Below, in pieces: positions 1-22,720 of a stretch of 64,000 nucleotides of DNA (within the stretch, counting starts at the first letter, position 1; every line of letters begins with the position of its first letter). Source of the DNA: Escherichia coli (lineage in GTDB: Bacteria; Pseudomonadota; Gammaproteobacteria; Enterobacterales; Enterobacteriaceae); assembly GCF_001677475.2 (NCBI RefSeq), contig NZ_CP015229.1; one strand, written 5' to 3'. The notes under the pieces were generated by a model, which was not told the origin of the DNA, made no database searches, and saw only the letters and a program-made list of their open reading frames with translations. The translations under genes and the position numbers were made by a program.

Positions 1-480
1 GACACTTTGTTGTGCCGGGCGGTTTTGCAGAGAAGCGATCACTTCTTCGGTATCCAGATAATGGTAAGCCAGCATATAGGTGAGCTCATCAAGCACCACT
101 AAGTCGTAACGCTTGTCAGCCAGCATCCGTTTGCTTTCCGACCAGACCTCTTTCGCCGCGTCGATATCCGCTTGTCGGTTCTGTGTTTCCCAGGTAAAAC
201 CGGTTCCCATAATATGAAACTCAACCCCCAGCGGCTGGAGAAGGTTGTATTCGCCGTTGTCCCATTGCCCCTTGATGTACTGCGCAACCCCCACCGTTTT
301 GCCATGACCCACCGCGCGCGTCACAGTACCAAACGCGGCAGTGGATTTCCCTTTGCCGTTGCCGGTGAAAACAATCAAGATCCCTTTTTTCTCTATCGCC
401 GCCGCGACGCGCGTATCGACCTGTTCCTTCAATTTCTGCTGGCGCTGCACATGCCGTTCTGTTGAAATTCGCGCTTCCAT
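1..480 (-). CDS. ATP:cob(I)alamin adenosyltransferase paralog (BtuR/CobA/CobO family), N-terminal part; gene continues past window start
   Basis: Minus-strand frame from ATG (complement 478-480) with AGGA Shine-Dalgarno upstream; translation MEARISTERHVQRQQKLKEQVDTRV...GILIVFTGNGKGKSTAAFG...VVLDELTYM matches BtuR P-loop and motifs. Not in ORF track because it runs off the window. Confidence 0.8.
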   Translation of the reverse strand, partial: MEARISTERHVQRQQKLKEQVDTRVAAAIEKKGILIVFTGNGKGKSTAAFGTVTRAVGHGKTVGVAQYIKGQWDNGEYNLLQPLGVEFHIMGTGFTWETQNRQADIDAAKEVWSESKRMLADKRYDLVVLDELTYMLAYHYLDTEEVIASLQNRPAQQSV

Positions 481-489
481 TCATTTTCC

Positions 490-2142
490 TTAATGTCCCG
501 CAGGGCAACTGGCGCAGCGGTGTTGCTGCTCAAACTGACTAAAGAAATTATTGCCTTTATCATCTACCAGGATGAATGCGGGCAGATTTTCCACTTCCAT
601 CATCCACACCGCTTCCATACCCAGCTCCGGGTATTCAAGGCAACGCAGACTTTTGACATATTCTTGCGCCAGTAACGCAGCTGCACCGCCAATACTTCCC
701 AGATTGAAGCCGCCATGTTTGTGACAGGCATCGGTGACCTGCTGGCTGCGGTTACCTTTCGATAACATCACCAGACTGCCGCCAGCCGCCTGGAAGGTAT
801 CGACATAACCGTCCATTCGACCGCCCGTGGTTGGACCCAGTGAACCGCAGGCCATGTTCTCCGGTGTTTTCGCCGGGCCAGCGTAATAGACAATATGATG
901 CTTCAGGTAATCCGGCATCGGTTCGGCGCTATCCAGCCGCGCTTTTATTTTGGCGTGGGCGATATCGCGTGCCACTACGATGGGACCACTTAACGACACG
1001 CGGGTGCCTACCGGTAATCTGGCGAGATCCTGCATCACGTCACGCAACGGACGGTTTAGATCCAGATGTACATGTTGCGCGTGATTTTCTTCCCGCAGTG
1101 AGGCTGGAATATATTGCCCCGGATTGTGTTCGAGTTTTTCCAGCCAGATACCGTGCTTGTTAATTTTTGCTTTGATATTGCGATCGGCAGAACAGGAGAG
1201 CGCCATAGCTATCGGACAAGAGCCACCGTGACGCGGCAGACGAATGACGCGAATATCATGAGCGAAATATTTACCCCCAAATTGCGCACCAATACCAAAT
1301 TGCTGACTGGCCTCGAGCAACACTTTTTCCAGCTCAATATCACGGAATGCTTGTCCCTGCTCGTTTCCGCTGGTGGGCAAATTGTCGTAATATTTCGTTG
1401 AGGCCAGCTTGGCAACTTTTAAGGTTTGATCGGCTGAAAGCCCTCCGACGACAAAGGCGATGTGGTAAGGCGGGCAGGCAGCGGTGCCCAGCGATTTCAT
1501 TTTTTCGATTAAAAATGCGGTCAGTTTTTCTGGTTGCAATAAGGATTTGGTTTCCTGATAAAGTGCGGCTTTATTGGCGGAGCCGCCCCCTTTATTAACA
1601 CAGAGAAAATGGTACTCATTACCAGCGACAGCGTTGATATCAATCTGCGCCGGGAGATTGGTTTGCGTATTGACTTCGGTATACATATCCAGCGGCGCAT
1701 TTTGTGAAAAGCGCAGATTATTTTCCTGGAAAGTGGTGTAAATGCCTTTGCTTAAGGCTTCAGCGTCGTTACCTCCGGTCCATATCTGTTGCCCTTTACT
1801 GGCAACAATAGTTGCGGTGCCGGTATCCTGACAGTTGGGTAATACCCCTTTTGCTGAGACTTCAGCATTACGTAATAACTGCAACGCAACGTATTTATCA
1901 TTACTACTGGCCTGCGGATCGTTAAGAATGCTGGCGACCTGTTGCAAATGAGCGGAACGTAAGAAAAAAGAAGCTTCATAAAATGCCTGCCGGGCAAGCA
2001 GCGTTAATGCTTCAGGTGCGATTTTTATCACTTCTTCGCCGTCTAATTCCGTTACTGTAATATGCTGATCGCTAATTAATGTATATTCTGTACCGTCTTT
2101 ATTTTGTAGAAATGGTTCTTGCCAGATAAATGGTTTGGACAT
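490..2142 (-). CDS. fumD: Class I (Fe-S) fumarate hydratase family; probable mesaconase/fumarase
   Basis: 550-aa ORF, length and sequence typical of FumA/FumB-type hydro-lyases; sits in a glutamate mutase/methylaspartase cluster. The fumD symbol is from my recollection of the E. coli O157:H7 locus. Confidence 0.8.
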
Positions 2143-2249
2143 ATTTCACTTTTCACCTTAAACGTTAGTGTTACTTAATTGCCGTCTAACTTCATGATCC
2201 GGCTTATAAAAATGCATAGTCATTGGCTTCTGATTGCTTAAGATCCCCC

Positions 2250-3530
2250 TCAGGGCAGAGCAACGTTCGATTCATTGGGTTTTAATGCTTTACCCCGACA
2301 GCCCTCGCCGAAATGTTCGCCTTCCCACCGACTCACCATCGCAGCGCCCATTGCGTTGCTCATGACGTTTGTCGCGGAACGCCCCATATCAAGGAACGGA
2401 TCAACGCCCATCAGCAAGATCAGCCCCGCTTCCGGAATATTGAACTGGTTGAGCGTGGCGGCGATAACCACCATTGAAGCGCGTGGTACGCCAGCCATTC
2501 CTTTCGAGGTCAACATCAGGATCAACAGCATGGTGATTTGCTCACCGATGGATAAATGGATATTGCAGGCCTGGGCGATGAAAACTGTGGCGAAGGAGCA
2601 GTAGGCCATTGATCCAACGAGATTAAATGAGTAGCCAATGGGTAAGACAAAGCTGGCAATTTTGGGGGAAACGCCAAATTGCTCCAGTTTTTCAAGCGTT
2701 CCTGGAAAAGCCGCTTCAGAACTGGATGTGGTAAATGCCAGCAGGGCGGGTTCCGAAAGGGCGCGGGTCAGGCGTCTGATGCAGGGGCCGACATAAACGA
2801 TGGCCAGACCGATAAGCAGCACCCAAAGTAACAACATGGTGAAATAAAATTCACCCATAAAGATCCCGGCGCTCACCATAACTGCCAGTCCTCGTTCAGC
2901 AATCAATGCTGAAATAGCGGCGAATACGGTCAGGGGAGCGAAGAGCATGACGTAGCCAGTGAGCTTTAACATGGCATGTGCCAGCGAATCTAAGGCGTGA
3001 ACGATGGCGCTGCCTTTCTCGCCAATCGCCGTCAGGCTACAGCCGAGGAAAATTGAGAACACCACGATTTGCAAAATTTCATTGTGCGCCATGGCATCGA
3101 CAATGCTGGTGGGGAAAGCATGCGAAATAAATACTTTTAGCGTGAAGGGTTCTGACGCGACCACTCCAGTGGTTTCGGCACCGTGTGCAACAAAATTAAT
3201 TCCTGTACCTGGCATGAAGAAATTTACTGTTATTAAGCCTAAGGCAATTGACAGCAATGAGGCGCAAATAAATAAAAAGAGTGTTTTAGAAAAAATACGA
3301 CCAAGGGCTTTGGCATCGCCCATTTTAGCAATACCTACCACCAGGGTAGAGACCACTAACGGAGCGATAATCATTTTTATCAGTCGTAAGAAAATCGTCG
3401 TGAATATCGATATTTCTTGCGCATAGAGTTTTGCGGTTTCCGGTGAAGCAGTGTTATTGAGCACTACGCCGATAACCATTCCAAGTACCAGCGCCAAAAG
3501 AATCATCGTGGTTAAACTTATTTTCTTCAT
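2250..3530 (-). CDS. Dicarboxylate/amino acid:cation symporter (GltP/DctA-like), possible glutamate or C4/C5-dicarboxylate transporter
   Basis: Hydrophobic multi-TM ORF with DAACS-like motifs; start chosen at MKKISL (complement ATG 3528-3530) preceded by GGAGG; ORF-track start at 3551 rejected. Confidence 0.75.
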   Translation of the reverse strand: MKKISLTTMILLALVLGMVIGVVLNNTASPETAKLYAQEISIFTTIFLRLIKMIIAPLVVSTLVVGIAKMGDAKALGRIFSKTLFLFICASLLSIALGLITVNFFMPGTGINFVAHGAETTGVVASEPFTLKVFISHAFPTSIVDAMAHNEILQIVVFSIFLGCSLTAIGEKGSAIVHALDSLAHAMLKLTGYVMLFAPLTVFAAISALIAERGLAVMVSAGIFMGEFYFTMLLLWVLLIGLAIVYVGPCIRRLTRALSEPALLAFTTSSSEAAFPGTLEKLEQFGVSPKIASFVLPIGYSFNLVGSMAYCSFATVFIAQACNIHLSIGEQITMLLILMLTSKGMAGVPRASMVVIAATLNQFNIPEAGLILLMGVDPFLDMGRSATNVMSNAMGAAMVSRWEGEHFGEGCRGKALKPNESNVALP

Positions 3531-3580
3531 TTTTTCCTCCATCAGGTGCACGGCGATAAATCAGAATCAGGAGAAGTAGA

Positions 3581-3602
3581 TGCCTGAATAGAGATTCAGG
3601 CA
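3581..3602 (-). other. Perfect hairpin (tgcctgaat-aga-attcaggca) in intergenic gap inside the island operon
   Basis: Inverted repeat read directly between the DUF4387-like gene stop and the transporter start. Confidence 0.4.
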
Positions 3603-3690
3603 TCTACCTGCTATTACAACCTTACAAATAGCTGAAGTGTTGAACTGCAATAAGTGACGGGATGTCAGTTGGCTAAAAGTGTTCGGATTT

Positions 3691-4008
3691 TTACAAATCG
3701 AAACTCATATTTAATAAAGGTGCATGTTGCTGTGCACCATAGACATCATTGTCACCTACATTCCCGGAGATAATATCTCGTGGCATGACGATTTTTACTG
3801 CGTTAGAAGGATCAAACCAGACAATACGATGAATAAAGTCAGGTTCAACATGATATAAGCGCGCAATCAGTTCTGGGGTTAATTGCCCTGATGATTTAAC
3901 TCGCTCATAGTTTTCTTTGGTTTTAAATAAAATATCTAAAACCAGTTCGTAAGGTCCGGCATTTTTCGAACGAATGACTTGCGCCAGTGAGACAATTGAC
4001 TGTTTCAT
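3691..4008 (-). CDS. Small conserved protein of unknown function (DUF4387-like), partner of upstream AtuA-like gene
   Basis: 105-aa ORF; start overlaps upstream gene stop by 4 bp; family assignment from memory of DUF1446/DUF4387 pairing. Confidence 0.6.
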   Translation of the reverse strand: MKQSIVSLAQVIRSKNAGPYELVLDILFKTKENYERVKSSGQLTPELIARLYHVEPDFIHRIVWFDPSNAVKIVMPRDIISGNVGDNDVYGAQQHAPLLNMSFDL

Positions 4009-5375
4009 GCCTGAACTCCTTCTGGCGTCACCTGTTCAATATGGAAATCAAAACGCAGAGCGTCGTTGGCTTCAATCAGGTGATATATGGAAAATTCGTA
4101 TACTGGCCCGCCCTGGATATCAGAAGGGGAGAACGGGAACGCCAGGTTGCCTGCGGTAGCGATGCGGTTTTCATAGCCGTAGTGCAGCATAGTAGAGCGC
4201 ACCAGCGAGCAAACGCTGTTGGCAATTTCCTGGGTCGATGCAACTACATCTAGCACAATCCCCAGCTCATGCCCGGCAGTTTGCATCGGTTCATGGTCGC
4301 CCATCACCCCGTTTTTGCCGTACAGGTGGAAATTGATGCGAATGCTGTCATCGTCGAGCGACAGGTTACGCGAAACGCTGGTTTTGACTTCATCGATGAT
4401 TTTATCGATCCCGGCGATCATGATCGGGTCGCGCGTTCCTGCGATGGTCAGACAGCGGAAGCCCACTCGTCGCGCACCTTCCAGTTTCAGGGCATACGGC
4501 GTTCCTTCATGCTTAGAACCGCTGACGTACACTTCGCCGTCATTGACCGCTTTAAATGTGCAGCCTTTCAGGTTCAACACGCCGCCAGGTCCAGGCAGGA
4601 AGTAGGGATCGGATTTCTCATACAGTGTGTGTGCAGCCGCTGACGTTTCGGTAAATTTACGCTTCGGATTAAATGTCTTCAGCGTAAAGCCGTTGTCATC
4701 AATGATGCCCATCGCACAGTCAGAGCCTGAGCCGGGCGTTGCGGCGATTGCCGCGCATTCAAGGATTTTCCCACAATGCAGCGCCAGACCTTCATCAAAG
4801 CCTTGCATGATCGGTAGCGCAGCAAAGCAGGCCGGGTCGTAAGCGCGCCCGCCCAGCACCACTTGCGCGCCTTCTTTCAGCGCCTGCTGGAAGGGTTCGA
4901 TGCCCATTTGCGCGACGATATACGTACTTTCGTCAATCGCGTCGTGGGTTAACGGCGGGACAAAATCCAGCGCCGTGATTTTGCCGTTATCCAGCGCCTG
5001 GTGGACGATGGCTTTGTCAACGTCTGCCGGGATCAACGCCATCGAGAACGAGAGGTGCTCTTCCCGGGCAATCTCATGAATTATTTCTCGGCACCACTCC
5101 AGGTGTGGTGCGGCACCAGAACCGCCAGCCGTTCCGATCACCACCGGTATATTATTTTGCACGCCTGCGGTGATCATATAGCGCAGATCGCGCTTGACCC
5201 CTGCGCGATCGGTAAACGGTTTGCCTGCCCCGAGGTAGTGGGGGCCTGGATCGGAAGAGCCTGCATCAACGGCGATCAGATCGGGCGATTCTGCCATCGC
5301 TTTGCGGAAGCTCTCTTCCGGGAATCCATACCCGAGGATTGCCGTTGGCGATAAGACTTTAAAAGAACGAGCCAT
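4005..5375 (-). CDS. AtuA-like (DUF1446) family protein of unknown function
   Basis: 456-aa ORF, in-operon between methylaspartase and the DUF4387-like gene; family call from sequence feel, not a search. Confidence 0.6.
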   Translation of the reverse strand: MARSFKVLSPTAILGYGFPEESFRKAMAESPDLIAVDAGSSDPGPHYLGAGKPFTDRAGVKRDLRYMITAGVQNNIPVVIGTAGGSGAAPHLEWCREIIHEIAREEHLSFSMALIPADVDKAIVHQALDNGKITALDFVPPLTHDAIDESTYIVAQMGIEPFQQALKEGAQVVLGGRAYDPACFAALPIMQGFDEGLALHCGKILECAAIAATPGSGSDCAMGIIDDNGFTLKTFNPKRKFTETSAAAHTLYEKSDPYFLPGPGGVLNLKGCTFKAVNDGEVYVSGSKHEGTPYALKLEGARRVGFRCLTIAGTRDPIMIAGIDKIIDEVKTSVSRNLSLDDDSIRINFHLYGKNGVMGDHEPMQTAGHELGIVLDVVASTQEIANSVCSLVRSTMLHYGYENRIATAGNLAFPFSPSDIQGGPVYEFSIYHLIEANDALRFDFHIEQVTPEGVQA

Positions 5376-5378
5376 TTG

Positions 5379-6620
5379 TTAATCCTTAGCCTGCAACAGC
5401 GCGATAGTACGATTCATTTCGTTGAAGACAATATCGAGGCCTTCGTCAAAGCCCATCCCAGGTTTTACCAGCATACGCATAGGGCGAGCGGCAAGGGCGA
5501 CGTGGACACAGGTGCGTGCACTGACATCAGTTTCATTGCAGGTGCCGCCCTGGTACGCTTCCATGTTGTGGCTGTTGCAATAAAGAACTGCATCGACGAT
5601 GTTGTGAATACTGCCCAGATCCGGGGTTTTGATTTGCACCATGTGGCAACTGGCGGCATCAGTGAAATCAACAATATCCTGGTAGGTGTTACACCATTCA
5701 TCGGCCACAATTTTCACGCCGGAACCGAGGCGCATCAGCTCTTTGGTAATCGCGGTCAGCAGGCGAATTTGATCGGGCTTGTTACCGGCATCGACCGGCC
5801 CTTCAATGTAGAGCGGCAGGCCTTGCGCTTCTTTTTCCAGGCTGGCGATGTATTGCGCACAGCGAAGCGGATCCATATCGAAGATCAGACCGATAGTGCC
5901 GTATACATCGATGTGCAGGGTTGGGTGGTAGCGTGCGCTGGTGCGCTTGCTCAGAATGCGATCCGACAGCCAGCGGACATATTCGCGCAGTTTTTCACCT
6001 TTAAAGCCCAGCTTCTCTTCGACGTTATTAATCAGCGCATGGGGCAGCACGTCGATGCCTTTAAGGATCATCTTATCGACGGCGATATATCGATCGTCGC
6101 CGCTCTGACCAAATAATGGAATGGATTCCGCCACGCGTGGCAACTGCCATTCATCACAGACCACTTCAGTTTTCAGACGGCCGGTTGCCAGCGCGGCAGC
6201 ATCAAGCAGCGCCTGTGATAATCCGTAGCGCACGGCGGTATGCAGCAAGTTGCCGTCAATACGCAATTTGTCGAAGAAACGGGCATTCGGCAGGAAAGCA
6301 TCCACATCGCGGCCTACCAGTAATGGCTTAATATGGTCGTTGAGGAACGGAATAAAGTGCTCTGCGAGGAACAGTGGATCGCGACCACCTGCCCCGGAAT
6401 ACTGTACGGCAGCACAGTCACCTACAGCGACCGCGCCGTTTTCCAGAATCAACTGTACCGATACGCACTCCCCAGCCTGACGTACGGCGTTAAACCCTTG
6501 TGTTACTGGCTCCCCGGTATAAAAAAAGCCGTCGTGACCCGCTCCGTTTTTTATCGCCTGCTGGTCATCGAAATAGAATGAGGAATAGCCAGCGGTGAAC
6601 AGGGCCTGTTTTATTTTCAT
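5379..6620 (-). CDS. 3-methylaspartate ammonia-lyase (methylaspartase)
   Basis: 413-aa ORF with blocks CAAVQYSGAGGRDPLF, HIDVYGTIG, HMVQIKTPDLG, KPGMG.DEG matching clostridial methylaspartase; enolase-superfamily length. Confidence 0.9.
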   Translation of the reverse strand: MKIKQALFTAGYSSFYFDDQQAIKNGAGHDGFFYTGEPVTQGFNAVRQAGECVSVQLILENGAVAVGDCAAVQYSGAGGRDPLFLAEHFIPFLNDHIKPLLVGRDVDAFLPNARFFDKLRIDGNLLHTAVRYGLSQALLDAAALATGRLKTEVVCDEWQLPRVAESIPLFGQSGDDRYIAVDKMILKGIDVLPHALINNVEEKLGFKGEKLREYVRWLSDRILSKRTSARYHPTLHIDVYGTIGLIFDMDPLRCAQYIASLEKEAQGLPLYIEGPVDAGNKPDQIRLLTAITKELMRLGSGVKIVADEWCNTYQDIVDFTDAASCHMVQIKTPDLGSIHNIVDAVLYCNSHNMEAYQGGTCNETDVSARTCVHVALAARPMRMLVKPGMGFDEGLDIVFNEMNRTIALLQAKD

Positions 6621-8065
6621 TATGGTCTTCCTATTAATTTACTGTGGGATACAGCATTGATGTCATCTACAACCATCTGGAATGTCGGTTGGCGTCCTTC
6701 AAAGCGTGCGCGTTCCGCAACGTAATCGTGGTGGAGGTCGAGAATATCTTTTGGCAATGGAACGGCTCCGGCTTCCAGTACGCGTATCGCGCCGGTGTTG
6801 TCACGGACCGGAAGAATTTTGCCCGCGTTGCAGGCGGCTGGCGCAAATGGCACATCCAGTACGCCCGCTTCAAATGCCAGCACCGTTCCGCGCGCAATAT
6901 CATCATTACCCAGTTCGAACACTTTATTCAGTACTGCGCGAACCTCGCTCTTAATCAGTTCAATTTCCAGTTCAACCGCAGGGCACGGCGGAAATTTCTG
7001 CTCATTGACCATGTTGAGCATCTGGCGGGAGGCTTTTAGCCCCTGAATGTTGGCAGCGGCAGTCGGGATGCCCCAGGCTTCGTGCGGACTTTTGGTGATG
7101 ACTTTGGTGGCACCAGACATCCCCGCGACGGCTGCGCCCCAGGAGATAATAGCGAACGCTTTCGATTCGTCTTCCGGAAAGCCGCCCATCCACTGGTGAA
7201 ACACGGTACTTAATTCATAGTCGGTATAGCCATAGCTCTGAAAGTAGTCATGTGCAAGTTCACGCAGAGACTGGATCGCCGCAACATCCTGCGTCAGGCT
7301 GCCGACCTGTCCATAACCAACGGTGATAGATTTCACACCCTGTTCCAGTGCCAGCAATCCTTCGATTATCGCGATAGAGTGCGAGATAAACGGCGGGATC
7401 AGCGTACCCGTTAGTGGGCCAAACGGTTCGCGGTTGATGCGGATCCCGTGTTCTTCATACATCCCCATTAAACGGTCGCAGTACTGCCAGTCGCGGATCG
7501 ATTTTTCCAGCGTTACGCGTTTGGCATACGGAATGTTGTAGGAAATGCCGCCGCCTTCATAACTGGTAAAGCCGCTGGACATCGAGATTTCAGCCAGCAG
7601 ACGTGCATCTGGCGTGCCGTGGCGGATCTGTAGCGGTTTTTGCAGGGTTTCGGTGAGGCGACGGCAAGCAGCGACACCATGGTTAACTACCGGTAAACCG
7701 TTCAGTTTAGAGGTTCCGGCTTCGATGGATTTTTTAATCCCTACAGCCGCTTCTTCGTACCGATTCAGACGGGTATATGCATCGATGGTGCTTGGCAGCA
7801 GATCGCACTCTTCTTGTAGTGTTTTCAGTAGTTCGATGTGTTCGTCCATCAGCGCCACACCTGCGCGTGGTTGGCTAAGGGTTTTTCCTTCCTTGTCTGC
7901 TTTCAGCAGCGCAAGAGAGAAGCGTTTATGCTCAGGAATGGTTTGTTGGTATTTAACGCCATCTTCAAAGTTTTCAACATCCTTGCCGGTTTCCCAGGTT
8001 TTCAGTACCTGTTGCCGCTCGGTCATGAATTCGTCATGGGTTAATTTCTTATTTCGAAGTTCCAT
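6620..8065 (-). CDS. Glutamate mutase epsilon (E, catalytic) subunit
   Basis: 481-aa ORF; MELRNKK..., PRAGVALMDEHIELL, HGTPDARLLAEI, FHQWMGGFPEDESKAF match GlmE/MutE; 1-bp overlap with downstream methylaspartase gene. Confidence 0.9.
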   Translation of the reverse strand: MELRNKKLTHDEFMTERQQVLKTWETGKDVENFEDGVKYQQTIPEHKRFSLALLKADKEGKTLSQPRAGVALMDEHIELLKTLQEECDLLPSTIDAYTRLNRYEEAAVGIKKSIEAGTSKLNGLPVVNHGVAACRRLTETLQKPLQIRHGTPDARLLAEISMSSGFTSYEGGGISYNIPYAKRVTLEKSIRDWQYCDRLMGMYEEHGIRINREPFGPLTGTLIPPFISHSIAIIEGLLALEQGVKSITVGYGQVGSLTQDVAAIQSLRELAHDYFQSYGYTDYELSTVFHQWMGGFPEDESKAFAIISWGAAVAGMSGATKVITKSPHEAWGIPTAAANIQGLKASRQMLNMVNEQKFPPCPAVELEIELIKSEVRAVLNKVFELGNDDIARGTVLAFEAGVLDVPFAPAACNAGKILPVRDNTGAIRVLEAGAVPLPKDILDLHHDYVAERARFEGRQPTFQMVVDDINAVSHSKLIGRP

Positions 8066-8083
8066 TGATTGCAGCCTTAATTG

Positions 8084-9472
8084 TTATAGGGTTAAGCATT
8101 GAATACTGGTGCGCGCGGCGGCCAGCGGATCGACTCTGGCGACGTTTGCCAGCAGTGGTAATAGCCCCCGGGAATCGCGGTAATATTCAAATTCGGTCGG
8201 TAAGAGAATGCGTTTACCGTCGTCGTTTAACTCGCGGTATTTCAACCAGTGATGCATATCGAACTGACTGGCACGCGAGAGCCATCCGCCGGAACCCACG
8301 ACTTTACGCACGGTTGTCAGGTCACGTCCCATCTGTAAATCGACATTGCCGACGCAGGTGCAGACCTCTTTTTTGGTGCCCGCATGTCTTTCGGTGGCAT
8401 AACCCACACACAGTCCGGCCAGGACGGTATCGAAATATTTCTCTTCTGCATTTGCGGGTAAGTAGTCGGGATGAGCGACTAAATGACGGAGATAATGATA
8501 AAAAGCGTCCAGCTGTGCGGGTTGCTGAGCAAAATTCACATTGACTAACTCTTTCGCACTTTCACCAACCACCACTGCCGAGACGCGCATTCCCAGATCG
8601 CCTTCCACCGTCCGTTTTACGAAGGGTTCCGGTACGCCGTGTAAAACGGTGTCGGGCGAGAGCGTGTTGGCACAGGCGGAATAGACATCGGTGGTTGCGC
8701 CGCCCATGTCGATCAGCATGAACTCTTTCCAGCTGTGATCGACGTTACTGATTGCCTTAACCAGTTCAAAGACCGTCCATGGTGTCGGCCTTGGTTCTTC
8801 GCCTGTTTTATCAACAATGACATCCAGCCCTTTCCCTTTAACGATGCGTTTAAGGAATATGTCGCAAATAGCCTGGCGTGCGGCTAAAGGGTTCGGATGG
8901 TCAAGATCGGGCAGAACGTTGTCGACGATGGTCAGGTCTTTATGCCCGAGGAGCTCCTGCACCTCGTCCTGAATATCCCGGTTTCCGGCATAAATAATGG
9001 CGCAGTCGAGTTGGGATTCTGCCAGCACACGGGCGTTATTCAGTCCGTAACTTTCTTCTCCGCCGTCGGTGCCGCCGGTGAACAAGAGAATATCGGGCTG
9101 CGTTTCTTCCAGTGCCTGGATATCACGGCGGTTCAGCTTGTAGGAGTAATATTGCGCAATTTTAGCCCCCGCAGAGTGAGCGGTTACTTTCGCGGTTTCC
9201 AGGGTGATAGAAGGCACCAATCCCATTGCGGCAACCGCCAGCCCACCTTTGGCAGAGGAGGAATACTTTAATGCAACCTCACCACTGTTTAACAGGGGGA
9301 GGGCATCATCTACGTTTAACACCTGGTCCAGGCTGGAGAAAAACCCCTTCGCCAGATGATGGGTGGTGGTTGGGGTCAGAACGTGGTTAACCAACGTTAA
9401 CGCGTCCCCCTCCCGGGTGAAGAGGGCTGCTTTGGTCCACGTCGAACCAATATCGACAGAGACGATTTGCAT
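8084..9472 (-). CDS. Glutamate mutase component L (MutL/GlmL-type putative reactivating chaperone)
   Basis: 462-aa ORF between the S and E subunit genes, the position GlmL occupies in clostridial operons; N-terminus [18 protein letters not shown] is actin/hsp70-fold like. Confidence 0.8.
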   Translation of the reverse strand: MQIVSVDIGSTWTKAALFTREGDALTLVNHVLTPTTTHHLAKGFFSSLDQVLNVDDALPLLNSGEVALKYSSSAKGGLAVAAMGLVPSITLETAKVTAHSAGAKIAQYYSYKLNRRDIQALEETQPDILLFTGGTDGGEESYGLNNARVLAESQLDCAIIYAGNRDIQDEVQELLGHKDLTIVDNVLPDLDHPNPLAARQAICDIFLKRIVKGKGLDVIVDKTGEEPRPTPWTVFELVKAISNVDHSWKEFMLIDMGGATTDVYSACANTLSPDTVLHGVPEPFVKRTVEGDLGMRVSAVVVGESAKELVNVNFAQQPAQLDAFYHYLRHLVAHPDYLPANAEEKYFDTVLAGLCVGYATERHAGTKKEVCTCVGNVDLQMGRDLTTVRKVVGSGGWLSRASQFDMHHWLKYRELNDDGKRILLPTEFEYYRDSRGLLPLLANVARVDPLAAARTSIQCLTL

Positions 9473-9921
9473 CAGATTGCCTCTTCAAGAATGCGAGTAT
9501 CAACGTCATGACGTTGGTTGATATCGTGGGCCATCAGCTGACAAACATCTTCTAAGTCATGACTTGGGGAAAAGACGCGATCAAATCCCATCTCTTTGAA
9601 CTTGGTTTCCACGTCAGCGAAGTCATGTTTTCCGACCACCAGGTTACCGCCCACATAGAGCAGGATGTTACCCAGCCCACGCTCGATGCAGCGTTCGCGC
9701 ATGCCCAGACAATCGATATCGCCATGCCCATAGATAGAAGAGACGACAATCGCGTCAGCGCCAGTTTCAATAGCAGCATCAATATATTCGTCCTGGCTGA
9801 CCATTACGCCCAGATTAATGACTCTGAAGTCGTGGTTGCTAAAAACGCGGTCCAGAACTTTATTGCCTACTGCATGGCAGTCCGCGCCAATAACGCCAAT
9901 CACAAGTGTTGCTTTCTTCAT
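9472..9921 (-). CDS. Glutamate mutase sigma (S, B12-binding) subunit
   Basis: [24 protein letters not shown] carries the DxHxxG cobalamin-binding motif; start moved to internal ATG (complement 9919-9921) with AAGGA SD; ORF-track start 9984 rejected. Confidence 0.9.
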
Positions 9922-10468
9922 GGGTAATCCTTTGTAAGACAGAGAGTAAAATAAGTTACACACGTCGTATTTATGGCCGCTCATAACGGCACAGGTTTAA
10001 TATCACAGGAGTGTCTTTATCTGACCGTAATGTTGCAATTGATCTATTTTCAAAATGTCTTTCGGGAAATGATTGTTTAAAGTGTGTTTTCAAATTCTCA
10101 TTTTAATTCAGTGTGTTATGTCAACTAATGTCATGAATGTTAAATTTTTAAAATTAACTTGATTTGATGTATTGAGATAATTGTGATCAACTTCTAATTT
10201 GCATTTTTGTGACGTGGCTTTAGCCATGAGTAAATGCATTTCATAAAAGTTAAGTCGAATTTCACTGCAATTCATCTCTGCTTAATGTAAAAATAATGTT
10301 GAAAATAACAAATAATTAATGATTCATGCGAATTATGACCTTTGTTAGCTCTTTTGATTTTTCGTAAAAAAGAAAAGCACATGAAGGTGCTACCAGTACG
10401 AGAAACGTTAATCAAAAGTTTTATTACGTCTGGCAATAACGCAGGCCATTTTTCGCGACAGGAGGGAT
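9922..10468 (-). promoter_or_regulatory. AT-rich leader/promoter region of the glutamate mutase operon
   Basis: About 550 bp non-coding, very AT-rich, directly upstream of the first operon gene; no specific sites identified. Confidence 0.4.
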
Positions 10469-10891
10469 TTAATCAGTATAATCCTCATACAATAGGTCAG
10501 GATTTACAGAACCGTTAACGGGGTTTTGGTGTTGAAATTTAGAAATGGTGGAGTCAATCAATGAAGACAGTATCGAAAAAATGACTGTGTCAGAACTAAT
10601 TTCAATTAATCCTTCTCGTTGTTGATCAAAAAAGATATTTATCTTGATTTCATTTGTACTACGGCAATCAATATGTAGTAATTTTTGATCGCTGAGATTT
10701 TCTGTTTCATAAATGTTTTTGGCGATAGTCGGATGTATTGATGCCAGACATCTGCTCAGATAAGCCATATCCTTTAAGGAACTCCCCGCTGAGTAGAGGA
10801 TGTCAGAGAATTTTTGTGTGTCAACTGTTGTCTCTGAAGCGTATGTTGCATTGACAGGAAGAGTATTGAAAGAGATCTGAGATGGTATCAT
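10469..10891 (-). CDS. Hypothetical acidic small protein (140 aa), second gene of AT-rich two-gene module
   Basis: Complete ORF in AT-rich DNA; Asp/Glu-rich, no motif I recognise. Confidence 0.55.
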   Translation of the reverse strand: MIPSQISFNTLPVNATYASETTVDTQKFSDILYSAGSSLKDMAYLSRCLASIHPTIAKNIYETENLSDQKLLHIDCRSTNEIKINIFFDQQREGLIEISSDTVIFSILSSLIDSTISKFQHQNPVNGSVNPDLLYEDYTD

Positions 10892-10972
10892 TATTTAAAT
10901 CTTTCCGTGAGTAATAAAAATTAATCCCCAGGCATTGTTTAGCAATATTTGCCATAGGGGATATATAGAAAA

Positions 10973-11917
10973 TTAAAGTATTTTATTGGCTTCGGTTAAC
11001 TGATCTATAACCAGTGCCAGATTGGTAAACATTTTGAAAAAGCGATACTGGCTCGGAATATCTCTTTCAAAGACGAAACATTCAAGGTCATTGTTTGAAA
11101 AATAAAGGACTAGTGTTGCTGATTCGTCAGGGAAAACATGGAAATGTATCTGGTTACCAGAAGGAGGATAGTCCAGAAGAAGGGTATCTTTGCCCGTCAC
11201 ATACCTGTTGTTGTCGTGGACGCTACGCTCACACTTCATCAGAGGTGTCAGGATACTCATGTATTCATCTGATGTTAATTTATTAAAATCATCATTCATT
11301 TTAAAGAAACGATAAAGTAACAGTACATCCTCTTGCGTAACCGGTTCGTTTGTTTTTAGAGGGAAATAAGCGGGAACCAGAAGATGAGGTTCTAATCTAT
11401 TTTGTTGAGCGCTATAACTGAATTTGAACATAAATTCTGGATCGCTCATCAATTGAGCGACATAATTATGCCTGGCTTCAAAAATTTTAATTTTTATCAG
11501 GTTGAATAAGTCTGTTTCGTCATCCTGTATTAAAAGACATTGGCCATAGCAGCCTGGATTTTTTTCATTATAAGCAGAAACGGTTATTCTGTCAGAGGTG
11601 TCAACGTTATATTCAAAAGCCAGATAGTGACCTTCTTCATCGCGATTTGTTTCCAGGTTATTTAAATTCATCACATGAAGTGTTTGCAATGCTGATTCAA
11701 TGAGTTGTTGACTCTCTGAGGTAAATGTTTTGCGCTGCGTTGTATAAAGTGTATCAATTCCAACGACTATCCGATGTGGATCAAGGATGGCGGCAATCAT
11801 CTTTATTACCTGCACAGTCACGGGTGATGTCATTGATTCTTCATCTGTTTTTAGAGGATCATTAGATGGCCAACCTGAGAAGCGATTGACAGCCGAACCG
11901 ATATTATCTGGACTCAT
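10973..11917 (-). CDS. Hypothetical protein (314 aa), first gene of AT-rich two-gene module
   Basis: Complete ORF, same strand and 81 bp upstream of the 140-aa ORF; no TM segments or known motifs recognised; spot-checked 60-bp lines are about one-third G+C. Confidence 0.55.
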   Translation of the reverse strand: MSPDNIGSAVNRFSGWPSNDPLKTDEESMTSPVTVQVIKMIAAILDPHRIVVGIDTLYTTQRKTFTSESQQLIESALQTLHVMNLNNLETNRDEEGHYLAFEYNVDTSDRITVSAYNEKNPGCYGQCLLIQDDETDLFNLIKIKIFEARHNYVAQLMSDPEFMFKFSYSAQQNRLEPHLLVPAYFPLKTNEPVTQEDVLLLYRFFKMNDDFNKLTSDEYMSILTPLMKCERSVHDNNRYVTGKDTLLLDYPPSGNQIHFHVFPDESATLVLYFSNNDLECFVFERDIPSQYRFFKMFTNLALVIDQLTEANKIL

Positions 11918-12722
11918 AGCAGCAACCTCATTGTAATCAAGCGAGGCGCTGAGCGTACTCGGCTATAGAAAAACTAACTTGCAAAAATCGCTCATTTTTC
12001 ATTTATCAGGCGAAAGTGGCCTCTGTTCACTCAGAAACAATCACTCCCGCTAAGTCATACCTGTTTCATCGATACATTTAAGTGATTATTACTAATGAAA
12101 CAATAACATAACGGGCTTACGGTCGGTGCTCATAAAGGCAACAATCAATTAACTTTGATAAAAATATGTTATGTAAAATAGCAACAAATTGGCTACTCTA
12201 ATCAATTGGTATTATAAAAAGAGGATAAGGCGGTTCTGTTAAATAAAACACTGGTTTTTTATCTATACCTTTTCATTGTAATAATTGTGTTGCATAAATA
12301 TTTCACAATAAATTAACAATAAAATCACCAATGATCTATGGTTTATACATAATTAACATATTTGGTTGGTTTTGATATAAATCAATTTTTAATTCTTGAA
12401 AAAAATCTGCAAAACACGATAAATTGTCGTAGATCAAATTGGTGAGATCGTGACAATTTCGCTATAAATTGATCACTGTCGAAAAATGCAAATTTGCTCA
12501 ATAAAAACCTGTTTATTGTAAGGATTTTGCGGCGTAATATAATTACGGGATCAATTTGGTTTATTCATTAACATATTTGTAACTTTTTTATCATTGTCTT
12601 TTCCTCTTTTGATGAAATGGCAACGATAGAGGCGAGCAAATAATTTTGTATTGGGGCATGCGTGTGACCCTTTCTAACGGGGTTCACTCTCGGAGTCTTC
12701 ATGCGATGAGCAAGGAGTCATG
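11918..12722 (+). promoter_or_regulatory. cydAB upstream regulatory region, AT-rich
   Basis: Long AT-rich non-coding region before cydA; in E. coli the cydAB promoters are controlled by ArcA, FNR and H-NS (established knowledge); individual sites not resolved by eye. Confidence 0.5.
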
Positions 12723-14291
12723 ATGTTAGATATAGTCGAACTGTCGCGCTTACAGTTTGCCTTGACCGCGATGTACCACTTCCTTTTTGTGCCACTGACG
12801 CTCGGTATGGCGTTCCTGCTGGCCATTATGGAAACGGTCTACGTCCTTTCCGGCAAACAGATTTATAAAGATATGACCAAGTTCTGGGGCAAGTTGTTTG
12901 GTATCAACTTCGCTCTGGGTGTGGCTACCGGTCTGACCATGGAGTTCCAGTTCGGGACTAACTGGTCTTACTATTCCCACTATGTAGGGGATATCTTCGG
13001 TGCGCCGCTGGCAATCGAAGGTCTGATGGCCTTCTTCCTCGAATCCACCTTTGTAGGTCTGTTCTTCTTCGGTTGGGATCGTCTGGGTAAGGTTCAGCAT
13101 ATGTGTGTCACCTGGCTGGTGGCGCTCGGTTCAAACCTGTCCGCGCTGTGGATTCTGGTTGCGAACGGCTGGATGCAAAACCCAATCGCGTCCGATTTCA
13201 ACTTTGAAACTATGCGTATGGAGATGGTGAGCTTCTCCGAGCTGGTGCTTAACCCGGTTGCTCAGGTGAAATTCGTTCACACTGTAGCGTCTGGTTATGT
13301 GACTGGCGCGATGTTCATCCTCGGTATCAGCGCATGGTATATGCTGAAAGGTCGTGACTTCGCCTTCGCTAAACGCTCCTTTGCTATCGCTGCCAGCTTC
13401 GGTATGGCTGCCGTTCTGTCTGTTATTGTTCTGGGTGATGAATCCGGCTACGAAATGGGCGACGTGCAGAAAACCAAACTGGCTGCTATTGAAGCTGAGT
13501 GGGAAACGCAACCTGCGCCTGCTGCCTTTACTCTGTTCGGCATTCCTGATCAGGAAGAGGAGACGAACAAATTTGCGATCCAGATCCCTTACGCGCTGGG
13601 CATCATTGCAACGCGTTCCGTGGATACTCCAGTTATCGGCCTGAAAGAACTGATGGTGCAGCATGAAGAACGCATTCGTAACGGGATGAAGGCGTACTCT
13701 CTGCTCGAACAACTGCGTTCTGGTTCTACCGACCAGGCGGTTCGTGACCAGTTCAATAGCATGAAGAAAGACCTCGGTTACGGTCTGCTGCTGAAACGCT
13801 ATACGCCAAACGTGGCTGATGCGACTGAAGCTCAGATTCAACAGGCAACCAAAGACTCCATTCCGCGTGTAGCGCCGCTGTACTTTGCGTTCCGTATCAT
13901 GGTGGCGTGTGGCTTCTTGCTGCTGGCAATCATCGCGCTCTCTTTCTGGAGTGTCATCCGCAACCGCATTGGCGAGAAAAAATGGTTGCTGCGCGCCGCG
14001 CTGTACGGTATTCCGCTGCCGTGGATTGCTGTAGAAGCGGGCTGGTTCGTGGCTGAATATGGCCGCCAACCGTGGGCTATCGGTGAAGTGCTGCCGACAG
14101 CTGTGGCAAACTCGTCACTGACCGCAGGCGATCTCATCTTCTCAATGGTGCTGATTTGTGGCCTGTATACCCTGTTCCTGGTGGCAGAATTGTTCTTAAT
14201 GTTCAAGTTTGCACGCCTCGGCCCAAGCAGCCTGAAAACCGGTCGCTATCACTTTGAGCAGTCTTCCACGACTACTCAGCCGGCACGCTAA
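12723..14291 (+). CDS. cydA: Cytochrome bd-I ubiquinol oxidase subunit I
   Basis: Translation [28 protein letters not shown]... recognised as CydA; start at second ATG to give 522 aa. Confidence 0.97.
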
Positions 14292-21818: not shown

Positions 21819-21894
21819 GGGTCGTTAGCTCAGTTGGTAGAGCAGTTGACTTTTAATCAATTGGTCGCAGGTTCGAATCCTGCACGACCCACCA
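21819..21894 (+). tRNA. lysT: tRNA-Lys (anticodon UUU)
   Basis: 76-nt gggtcgttagctcagttggtagagcagttgacttttaatcaattggtcgcaggttcgaatcctgcacgacccacca, anticodon loop cTTTTaa, CCA encoded. Confidence 0.97.
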
Positions 21895-21922
21895 ATCGCT
21901 AAGGTGGAAGCGGTAGTAAAAC

Positions 21923-21994
21923 GTGAAGGATAACGTTGCGTCAGCAACGGCCCGAAGGGCGAGACGAAGTCGAGTCATCCTGCACGACCCACCA
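21923..21994 (+). repeat. Spacer repeat ending in a tRNA-Lys 3' fragment (tcctgcacgacccacca)
   Basis: gtgaaggataacgttgcg.cagcaacggcccg.agggcgag..gaag.cgagtcatcctgcacgacccacca recurs three times in the array. Confidence 0.7.
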
Positions 21995-22029
21995 CTAACA
22001 TAGTTAGTTGTAGTATCCAGCGTAGTATC

Positions 22030-22105
22030 GGGTGATTAGCTCAGCTGGGAGAGCACCTCCCTTACAAGGAGGGGGTCGGCGGTTCGATCCCGTCATCACC
22101 CACCA
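22030..22105 (+). tRNA. valT: tRNA-Val (anticodon UAC)
   Basis: 76-nt gggtgattagctcagctgggagagcacctcccttacaaggaggg...cacccacca. Confidence 0.97.
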
Positions 22106-22107
22106 CC

Positions 22108-22183
22108 GGGTCGTTAGCTCAGTTGGTAGAGCAGTTGACTTTTAATCAATTGGTCGCAGGTTCGAATCCTGCACGACCCACCA
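22108..22183 (+). tRNA. lysW: tRNA-Lys (UUU)
   Basis: Identical to the first tRNA-Lys copy. Confidence 0.97.
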
Positions 22184-22234
22184 CTAATTACGGTGGGTTC
22201 GGTGGAAGTAGTTTGTAGTATCCAGCGCAGTATC

Positions 22235-22310
22235 GGGTGATTAGCTCAGCTGGGAGAGCACCTCCCTTACAAGGAGGGGGTCGGCGGTTCGATCCCGTCA
22301 TCACCCACCA
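22235..22310 (+). tRNA. valZ: tRNA-Val (UAC)
   Basis: Identical to the first tRNA-Val copy. Confidence 0.97.
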
Positions 22311-22313
22311 CTC

Positions 22314-22389
22314 GGGTCGTTAGCTCAGTTGGTAGAGCAGTTGACTTTTAATCAATTGGTCGCAGGTTCGAATCCTGCACGACCCACCA
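22314..22389 (+). tRNA. lysY: tRNA-Lys (UUU)
   Basis: Identical tRNA-Lys copy. Confidence 0.97.
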
Positions 22390-22417
22390 ATTTTAACATC
22401 AAACTCAGATGTTAAGC

Positions 22418-22487
22418 GTGAAGGATAACGTTGCGCCAGCAACGGCCCGTAGGGCGAGCGAAGCGAGTCATCCTGCACGACACACCA
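22418..22487 (+). repeat. Spacer repeat with degenerate tRNA-Lys 3' fragment (tcctgcacgacacacca)
   Basis: Second copy of the spacer element, with one substitution in the acceptor-stem fragment. Confidence 0.7.
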
Positions 22488-22535
22488 ATTTTAAAGATTG
22501 GTTCCGAGTAGAAATCTTTCAGGTAACACCCGTAT

Positions 22536-22611
22536 GGGTCGTTAGCTCAGTTGGTAGAGCAGTTGACTTTTAATCAATTGGTCGCAGGTTCGAATCCTGC
22601 ACGACCCACCA
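22536..22611 (+). tRNA. lysZ: tRNA-Lys (UUU)
   Basis: Identical tRNA-Lys copy. Confidence 0.97.
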
Positions 22612-22644
22612 TCCTGAATGATTAAAGCAGCATAATCCCGCAAG

Positions 22645-22720
22645 GGGTCGTTAGCTCAGTTGGTAGAGCAGTTGACTTTTAATCAATTGGTCGCAGGTTC
22701 GAATCCTGCACGACCCACCA
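22645..22720 (+). tRNA. lysQ: tRNA-Lys (UUU)
   Basis: Identical tRNA-Lys copy, last gene of the array. Confidence 0.97.

Follow-up and report, generated by a model that had tools for sequence, protein, structure and literature searches.

We analysed a 64,000-nucleotide (nt) stretch of Escherichia coli DNA (contig NZ_CP015229.1 of RefSeq assembly GCF_001677475.2; hereafter the window), which begins with a cluster of genes for the methylaspartate pathway of glutamate breakdown. Positions 1..9921 very probably represent the enterobacterial methylaspartate-pathway island of E. coli O157:H7 (ECs0755-0764), whose genes cover the whole catalytic route by which L-glutamate yields pyruvate, acetate and ammonia. 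The original prediction for this DNA, made from the letters alone, had seen no citramalate lyase gene and had placed the last step of the pathway elsewhere in the genome. Instead, two genes that it left unnamed, at 3691..4008 and 4005..5375, encode orthologues of the citramalate lyase subunits CmlB and CmlA. A 2015 paper already reported the cluster along with its locus, distribution and mesaconase (Kronen & Berg, PLoS One, PMC4682846), and the lyase has been in the Protein Data Bank (PDB) since 2025. Thus, the window adds one more orthologous copy, and the correction to be made is that the pathway would be complete within the cluster.

We listed the open reading frames (ORFs) with their translations, scanned the window proteins with NCBIfam profiles and judged the calls by the curated equivalog cut-offs. 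Nine co-directional minus-strand ORFs with short gaps or overlaps occupy window 1..9921, at the coordinates originally given, and all seven functions named at the outset hold in the scans:

1..480, minus strand: cobO/cobA-type ATP:cob(I)alamin adenosyltransferase; truncated by the window edge after its first 160 of about 200 codons
490..2142, minus strand: fumD, class I [4Fe-4S] fumarase acting as mesaconase, 550 amino acids (aa); NF011921
2250..3530, minus strand: DAACS-family dicarboxylate/amino acid:cation symporter, 426 aa; ATG start as in RefSeq, the ORF being open to a GTG at 3551
3691..4008, minus strand: cmlB, predicted DUF4387 small subunit of citramalate lyase, 105 aa; Pfam and PDB match
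4005..5375, minus strand: cmlA, predicted AtuA/DUF1446-family large subunit of citramalate lyase, 456 aa; PDB match
5379..6620, minus strand: mal, 3-methylaspartate ammonia-lyase (methylaspartase), 413 aa; TIGR01502
6620..8065, minus strand: glmE, glutamate (methylaspartate) mutase catalytic subunit E, 481 aa; TIGR01503
8084..9472, minus strand: glmL (mutL), glutamate mutase accessory/reactivating protein, 462 aa; NF040745, TIGR01319
9472..9921, minus strand: glmS, glutamate mutase B12-binding subunit S, 149 aa; NF002612

Adjacent genes overlap by 1 nt (glmS/glmL and glmE/mal) or 4 nt (cmlA/cmlB), or are separated by 3 nt (mal-cmlA), 9 nt (fumD-cobO), 18 nt (glmL-glmE), 107 nt (symporter-fumD) or about 160 nt (cmlB-symporter). 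Coordinate 9921 is the start codon of glmS as annotated in RefSeq. The eight ORFs that are complete in the window are all intact; cobO loses its last 41 codons to the window edge, and the LysR regulator gene that flanks cobO in O157:H7 lies beyond coordinate 1. The description of the cluster as a complete operon is slightly off, since the cut in cobO leaves the cluster incomplete within the window.

CmlAB and the cleavage of citramalate

The product of cmlA aligned over its full length with chain A of PDB entries 9ERQ and 9EVF (419 of 456 residues identical, 91.9%; E = 4e-291), and that of cmlB with chain B of the same entries (88 of 104, 84.6%; E = 5e-57). The depositors named these chains 'Citramalate lyase, subunit A (cmlA)' and 'Citramalate lyase, subunit B (cmlB)'. 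The predicted fold superposed on the solved citramalate lyase at a TM score of 0.93, and CmlB also matched the Pfam family DUF4387 (E = 2.9e-39). Like the window pair, the solved CmlAB comes from two adjacent genes, whose products have 456 aa (AtuA family) and 105 aa (DUF4387); the Escherichia allele is likened to it by sequence and predicted fold. Both entries were released in October 2025, and their titles describe an AMPPNP - citramalate complex and an ADP - pyruvate complex.

The two-subunit Cml (cmlAB) of Raoultella planticola, obtained as a gift from the Berg laboratory, breaks citramalate into pyruvate plus acetate (bioRxiv 10.64898/2026.01.16.699985). Isotope labelling and plasmid curing in the same study show that mesaconate carbon reaches acetyl-CoA only via Cml, and FumA and Cml alone sustained growth of engineered E. 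coli on mesaconate (10.64898/2026.01.16.699985). From this preprint we infer that the protein in 9ERQ and 9EVF is also from R. planticola. Since the products of 3691..4008 and 4005..5375 are, as judged by their sequences, orthologous to CmlB and CmlA, the last step of the pathway would be encoded inside the cluster.

In structure, CmlAB has no relation to the clostridial CitDEF-type lyase. Judging by the bound nucleotide, ATP probably participates in the CmlAB reaction, where consumption, regeneration and a regulatory role are alike possible. We speculate that an acyl-phosphate intermediate of CmlAB replaces the thioester of CitDEF.

The two genes carry other names in sequence databases. For the Sakai copies (ECs_0759 and ECs_0760; locus L005, 11934..13618), cmlB appears as 'acyl-CoA synthetase' and cmlA as '3-methylaspartate ammonia-lyase' in older records, and the current RefSeq labels are DUF4387 for cmlB and AtuA family (acyclic terpene utilization) for cmlA. 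AtuA of the acyclic terpene utilisation cluster of Pseudomonas belongs to the same Pfam family (PF07287), but the match of CmlA to that family is weak (67 bits, residues 63-392), and the context of CmlA is glutamate catabolism rather than the terpene and geranyl-CoA metabolism of its Pseudomonas relative. The label 'acyclic terpene utilization' is therefore misleading for cmlA, and the database names, old and current, conceal the function stated in the PDB, which is that of a citramalate lyase.

Homologues of CmlA with 60-70% identity are widespread. We opened four distant loci, and in three of them (in a Riflebacteria genome, a 5.46-Mb ENA genome and a metagenome contig) the genes lie in the order glmS - glmL - glmE - mal - cmlA - cmlB; the S-L-E-methylaspartase order singled out in the original prediction is thus present in the window and recurs in all three. 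A class I fumarase gene lies nearby in two of the three, and we found no CitD/E/F genes within 10 kb in any of them. The fourth locus has cmlAB alone, without glm or mal genes. This linkage across phyla fits the idea that cmlAB holds the place of citDEF in clostridial clusters.

Directly after cmlB, the Riflebacteria cluster and the two other distant clusters encode a conserved protein of about 315 aa (L006 11712..12665; L007 11677..12618; L008 11698..12654). Its three copies are 61-71% identical, carry the Walker A motif GVIGAEGSGKST and belong to no Pfam or NCBIfam family. The protein is not found in the enterobacterial cluster.

The remaining enzymes and their relatives

GlmS scored 251 bits on NF002612 (cut-off 110), aligned to chain A of PDB entry 1I9C (E = 2.8e-49) and contains D14-x-H16-x-x-G19, the base-off/His-on motif (D-x-H-x-x-G) for cobalamin (B12) binding. 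GlmE scored 858 bits on TIGR01503 (cut-off 390) and aligned over its full length with the Clostridium cochlearium GlmE structures (E ~1e-188). In that alignment its residues R67, R99, R148, E170 and Y180 correspond to R66, R100, R149, E171 and Y181 of the clostridial enzyme, in which the three arginines form the substrate-binding triad, together with Glu171 and Tyr181. We considered whether the S and E subunits belong to a different B12-dependent mutase family, and rejected this because GlmS and GlmE both exceed their own equivalog cut-offs while models for methylmalonyl-CoA mutase, ornithine aminomutase and lysine aminomutase gave at most 46 bits on GlmS. GlmS and GlmE are thus predicted to form an adenosylcobalamin-dependent glutamate mutase that interconverts glutamate and 3-methylaspartate. 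GlmL scored 505 bits on NF040745 (cut-off 475) and 884.6 bits on TIGR01319.

The methylaspartase scored 545 bits on TIGR01502 (cut-off 286), and its alignment with the Citrobacter amalonaticus enzyme (1KKO) is ungapped and full length (E = 1.1e-268). All 11 residues that we checked are kept (Q73, Q172, H194, D238, E273, D307, Q329, K331, T360, C361 and L384). In the C. tetanomorphum and C. amalonaticus structures, K331 and H194 are the catalytic bases and D238, E273 and D307 are Mg ligands; Q329 is a further active-site residue.

FumD scored 1279 bits on NF011921, the class I fumarate hydratase model (cut-off 1060), and fell below the cut-offs of the FumA model (923 against 1105) and, likewise, of the FumB model. 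It has Cys104, Cys223 and Cys317, which presumably correspond to C105, C224 and C318 of FumA, the three [4Fe-4S] ligands. It is identical at 541 of 550 positions (98.4%) to ECs_0757, and purified FumD (ECs0757) prefers mesaconate, with a kcat/Km of 2e6 M-1 s-1 as against 7.5e5 M-1 s-1 for fumarate (PMC4682846). The CobO fragment scored above both relevant cut-offs (NF004637, 219.5 bits, cut-off 185; TIGR00708, 177.9 bits, cut-off 167.75) and is identical at 160 of 160 positions to the O157:H7 cobO product.

The symporter is identical to ECs_0758 at 424 of 426 positions. It was named GltP in Fig. 5 of PMC4682846, and we presume it to be a glutamate importer. In O157:H7 MB41-1 the symporter gene (L001 11250..12529) has a 1-bp deletion near its 3' end, at about window position 2382, and is annotated as frameshifted; the gene is intact in Sakai and in the window. 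We therefore rejected this frameshift as the cause of the negative growth result of 2015: the deletion is specific to MB41-1.

Compared with clostridial operons (C. tetanomorphum, C. tetani and C. cochlearium), the first three steps use the same chemistry, and the order glmS/mutS - glmL/mutL - glmE/mutE - mal is common to both, as is well established (see also the Fig. 4 legend of PMC4682846). In clostridia, however, the mesaconase has two subunits (MesAB), the citramalate lyase is of the CitDEF type and comes with the maturation genes CitCXG, and the regulator is of the GntR type (PMC4682846), whereas the window cluster has the single-chain FumD, CmlAB, a LysR neighbour, cobO, a symporter and a G+C content of 51%. 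The methylaspartate cycle of haloarchaea shares glutamate mutase and methylaspartase as far as mesaconate, but there mesaconate is converted to mesaconyl-CoA for acetate assimilation, with neither mesaconase nor citramalate lyase (PMC4682846).

The sucD-cydA locus

In O157:H7 strains MB41-1 and Sakai the locus reads sucD - LysR - cobO - fumD - symporter - DUF4387 - AtuA - mal - glmE - glmL - glmS - two hypothetical genes - cydA, with the accessory genes tagged ECs_0755 to ECs_0767 in Sakai. The published cluster (ECs0755-ECs0764; PMC4682846) has the same sucD-cydA locus, gene order and orientation as the window cluster, and its products are 98.4-100% identical. The two are orthologues: the window copy comes from a lineage whose DNA is about 1.7% diverged from all complete E. 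coli genomes searched, and the cobO 3' end and the LysR gene are missing only through the cut of the window. In K-12 MG1655 the same locus is occupied by sucD - sdhX - mngR - mngA - mngB - cydA. The original prediction had named both arrangements correctly, and K-12 does not carry the cluster here. Pairwise alignment set the boundaries: a 13,970-bp segment of O157:H7 stands in place of 5,932 bp of K-12 (mngR-mngA-mngB), with its left junction directly after sdhX, outside the window. The accessory segment runs past glmS to 12346 and includes two further genes, which we refer to as orphans:

9922..10468, no strand: AT-rich non-coding stretch (about 31% G+C) upstream of glmS, presumed promoter/regulatory region
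10469..10891, minus strand: orphan gene, 140 aa; 36-38% G+C
10973..11917, minus strand: orphan gene, 314 aa; 36-38% G+C
12346/12347, no strand: right junction, where the accessory segment ends by comparison with K-12; K-12 homology resumes at 12347, 373 bp upstream of cydA

The locus has a third state, represented by FDAARGOS_1255, in which a TPR-protein pseudogene follows sucD and the junction falls at window position 12082. Upstream of cydA (12082..12720), K-12-type genomes align only from 12347, at about 80% identity. For the FDAARGOS_1255 type the alignment begins at 12082, with 91.5% identity; identity in the adjacent coding sequence is 96-98%. The distal part of the cydAB regulatory region may therefore differ in island carriers.

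Accessory status, as originally proposed, was borne out by the distribution. Counting as a carrier any complete genome that holds at least 80% of window 1..12700, we obtained 1116 carriers among 5426 complete E. coli genomes, which is near the 26.5% given for the species in 2015 (PMC4682846). The best identity to any of the 5426 genomes was 98.4% for the island and 98.3% for the flanking 23 kb, and the core genes from cydA to modF likewise reached about 98.3-98.4% at best, a DNA divergence of about 1.7%. The DNA thus derives from an Escherichia lineage with no near relative among those complete genomes, and the divergence of the island has kept pace with that of the core genome. This equal divergence of island and flank, together with the similar G+C content of the nine cluster genes (51.0%) and the rest of the window, which is flanking core genome (51.3%), led us to reject a recent clostridial origin.

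We found no integrase, transposase or tRNA attachment site between sucD and cydA in O157:H7, and the only direct repeats flanking the right junction were short, of low identity and at chance level. At this variable locus the island acts as an exchangeable segment. The same nine-gene cluster, with a glutaminase gene (glsA) between fumD and the symporter gene, occurs on a plasmid of Salmonella enterica Macclesfield (NZ_CP022118.1; L004 5826..16970), a 416-kb conjugative IncFIB replicon on which transposase genes flank the cluster. Its products are 83-93% identical to those of the window. We conclude that the cluster moves between replicons.

The 2.4 kb from glmS to the right junction has a G+C content of 35.3%. 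A terminator-like hairpin lies at 10391-10376, and the AT-rich stretch starts just after it. An Rfam scan of 1..13000 (E <= 1) gave no cobalamin riboswitch or other RNA family. Scanning 1..12720, we obtained 16 terminator-like sites against 14.3 expected, no better than chance; the promoter count was also at chance level (see below), and we therefore assigned no transcription units.

Neither orphan product had a match in NCBIfam, Pfam, PADLOC or PHROGs. Their O157:H7 orthologues (ECs_0766/0767) are 94.3% and 97.8% identical, with ratios of non-synonymous to synonymous change (dN/dS) of 0.27 and 0.23, based on few changes. We did not find the orphans outside E. coli chromosomes (tblastn against plasmids gave only mislabelled Escherichia chromosomes), and the cluster copy on the Salmonella plasmid lacks them. 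The 314-aa orphan was also compared with the conserved protein (about 315 aa) encoded directly after cmlB in other phyla; the two share no similarity, and we rejected the idea that they are counterparts. The orphans belong to the accessory segment and are not a recognisable part of the pathway.

Beyond the island, gene order is collinear with Sakai to at least 37186. The tRNA cluster at 21819..22720 (Lys-Val-Lys-Val-Lys-Lys-Lys) has seven genes against six annotated in Sakai; the extra tRNA is ordinary copy-number variation of the lysT-valT array.

The proposed pathway and its alternatives

In the pathway that we propose, the DAACS symporter would import glutamate, and GlmS and GlmE, with adenosylcobalamin, would convert it to (2S,3S)-3-methylaspartate. 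GlmL would keep the mutase active, and CobO would adenosylate salvaged corrinoid. Methylaspartase would then remove ammonia to give mesaconate, which FumD, an oxygen-sensitive class I fumarase, would hydrate to (S)-citramalate. CmlAB would cleave (S)-citramalate to pyruvate and acetate, and the pyruvate would presumably enter ordinary mixed-acid fermentation. The gene identities come from the present analysis; the activities of FumD and Cml were demonstrated by others, on orthologues that are 98% and 92%/85% identical, respectively. We infer the substrate of the transporter, the role of the nucleotide in CmlAB and the operation of the whole pathway in Escherichia cells.

Comparison of the window with O157:H7 across the eight comparable cluster genes gave 105 synonymous and 30 non-synonymous changes (dN/dS 0.087); the cluster genes are under purifying selection. 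A dN/dS of about 0.09 together with intact ORFs argues against a decaying relic, and says nothing about when the genes are expressed.

Several observations weigh against this proposal. The lyase assignment rests on the names chosen by the depositors and on one preprint that used the enzyme. The symporter reached 313.8 bits with the DctA model and 304.2 bits with the GltP model, in both cases short of the equivalog cut-off. A promoter scan of 1..12720 gave 12 promoter-like sites against 19.5 expected, no better than chance. Finally, under the conditions tried, E. coli ATCC 700728 did not grow anaerobically on glutamate and showed neither methylaspartase nor citramalate lyase activity, and no expression of the cluster was seen in this strain (PMC4682846).

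We consider it improbable that the cluster serves mainly for external C5-dicarboxylates (mesaconate, citramalate or methylaspartate), with the symporter as a dicarboxylate carrier and FumD and CmlAB as the core. The slightly higher symporter score on DctA than on GltP is what such a role would predict, as are the growth of engineered E. coli on mesaconate with FumA and Cml and the one distant locus that has cmlAB without glm or mal. However, only the B12-dependent glutamate step calls for four of the nine genes (glmS, glmL, glmE and cobO), which are intact and under purifying selection, and the glutaminase gene in the Salmonella plasmid copy points to glutamine or glutamate as the input.

We give very little credence to a cluster that stops at (S)-citramalate, with this product excreted or cleaved by an enzyme encoded elsewhere, such as citrate lyase. 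NCBIfam and Pfam scans gave no CitD-, CitE- or CitF-type lyase gene among the nine cluster ORFs, and in 2015 the fate of citramalate was left open as unclear and DUF1446 was of unknown function (PMC4682846). Conditions for citrate lyase, isocitrate lyase and methylisocitrate lyase nevertheless gave no citramalate lyase activity in O157:H7 extracts (PMC4682846). Moreover, the DUF1446/AtuA and DUF4387 genes of the cluster are near-identical to those of the solved CmlAB, which has been used as a lyase in vivo.

That the island is a silent relic in Escherichia, intact by recent descent and unused, is hardly credible: the negative results with ATCC 700728, the MB41-1 symporter deletion and the fact that E. 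coli makes no cobalamin de novo are set against a dN/dS of 0.087 between two lineages about 1.7% apart, retention of at least 80% of the segment by about one fifth of complete E. coli genomes and a symporter gene that is intact in both Sakai and the window.

We thus favour a methylaspartate-pathway island that encodes all steps from glutamate to pyruvate, acetate and ammonia. More tentatively, the island may be a module that is sufficient in itself and kept by selection, for anaerobic catabolism of gut glutamate when corrinoids are available, with CmlAB, a lyase of new fold, using ATP chemically and the orphans perhaps tied to control. About one fifth of E. coli strains, including most O157:H7, hold genes that would convert glutamate to pyruvate and acetate with vitamin B12, and such B12-dependent use of glutamate could matter for gut colonisation.

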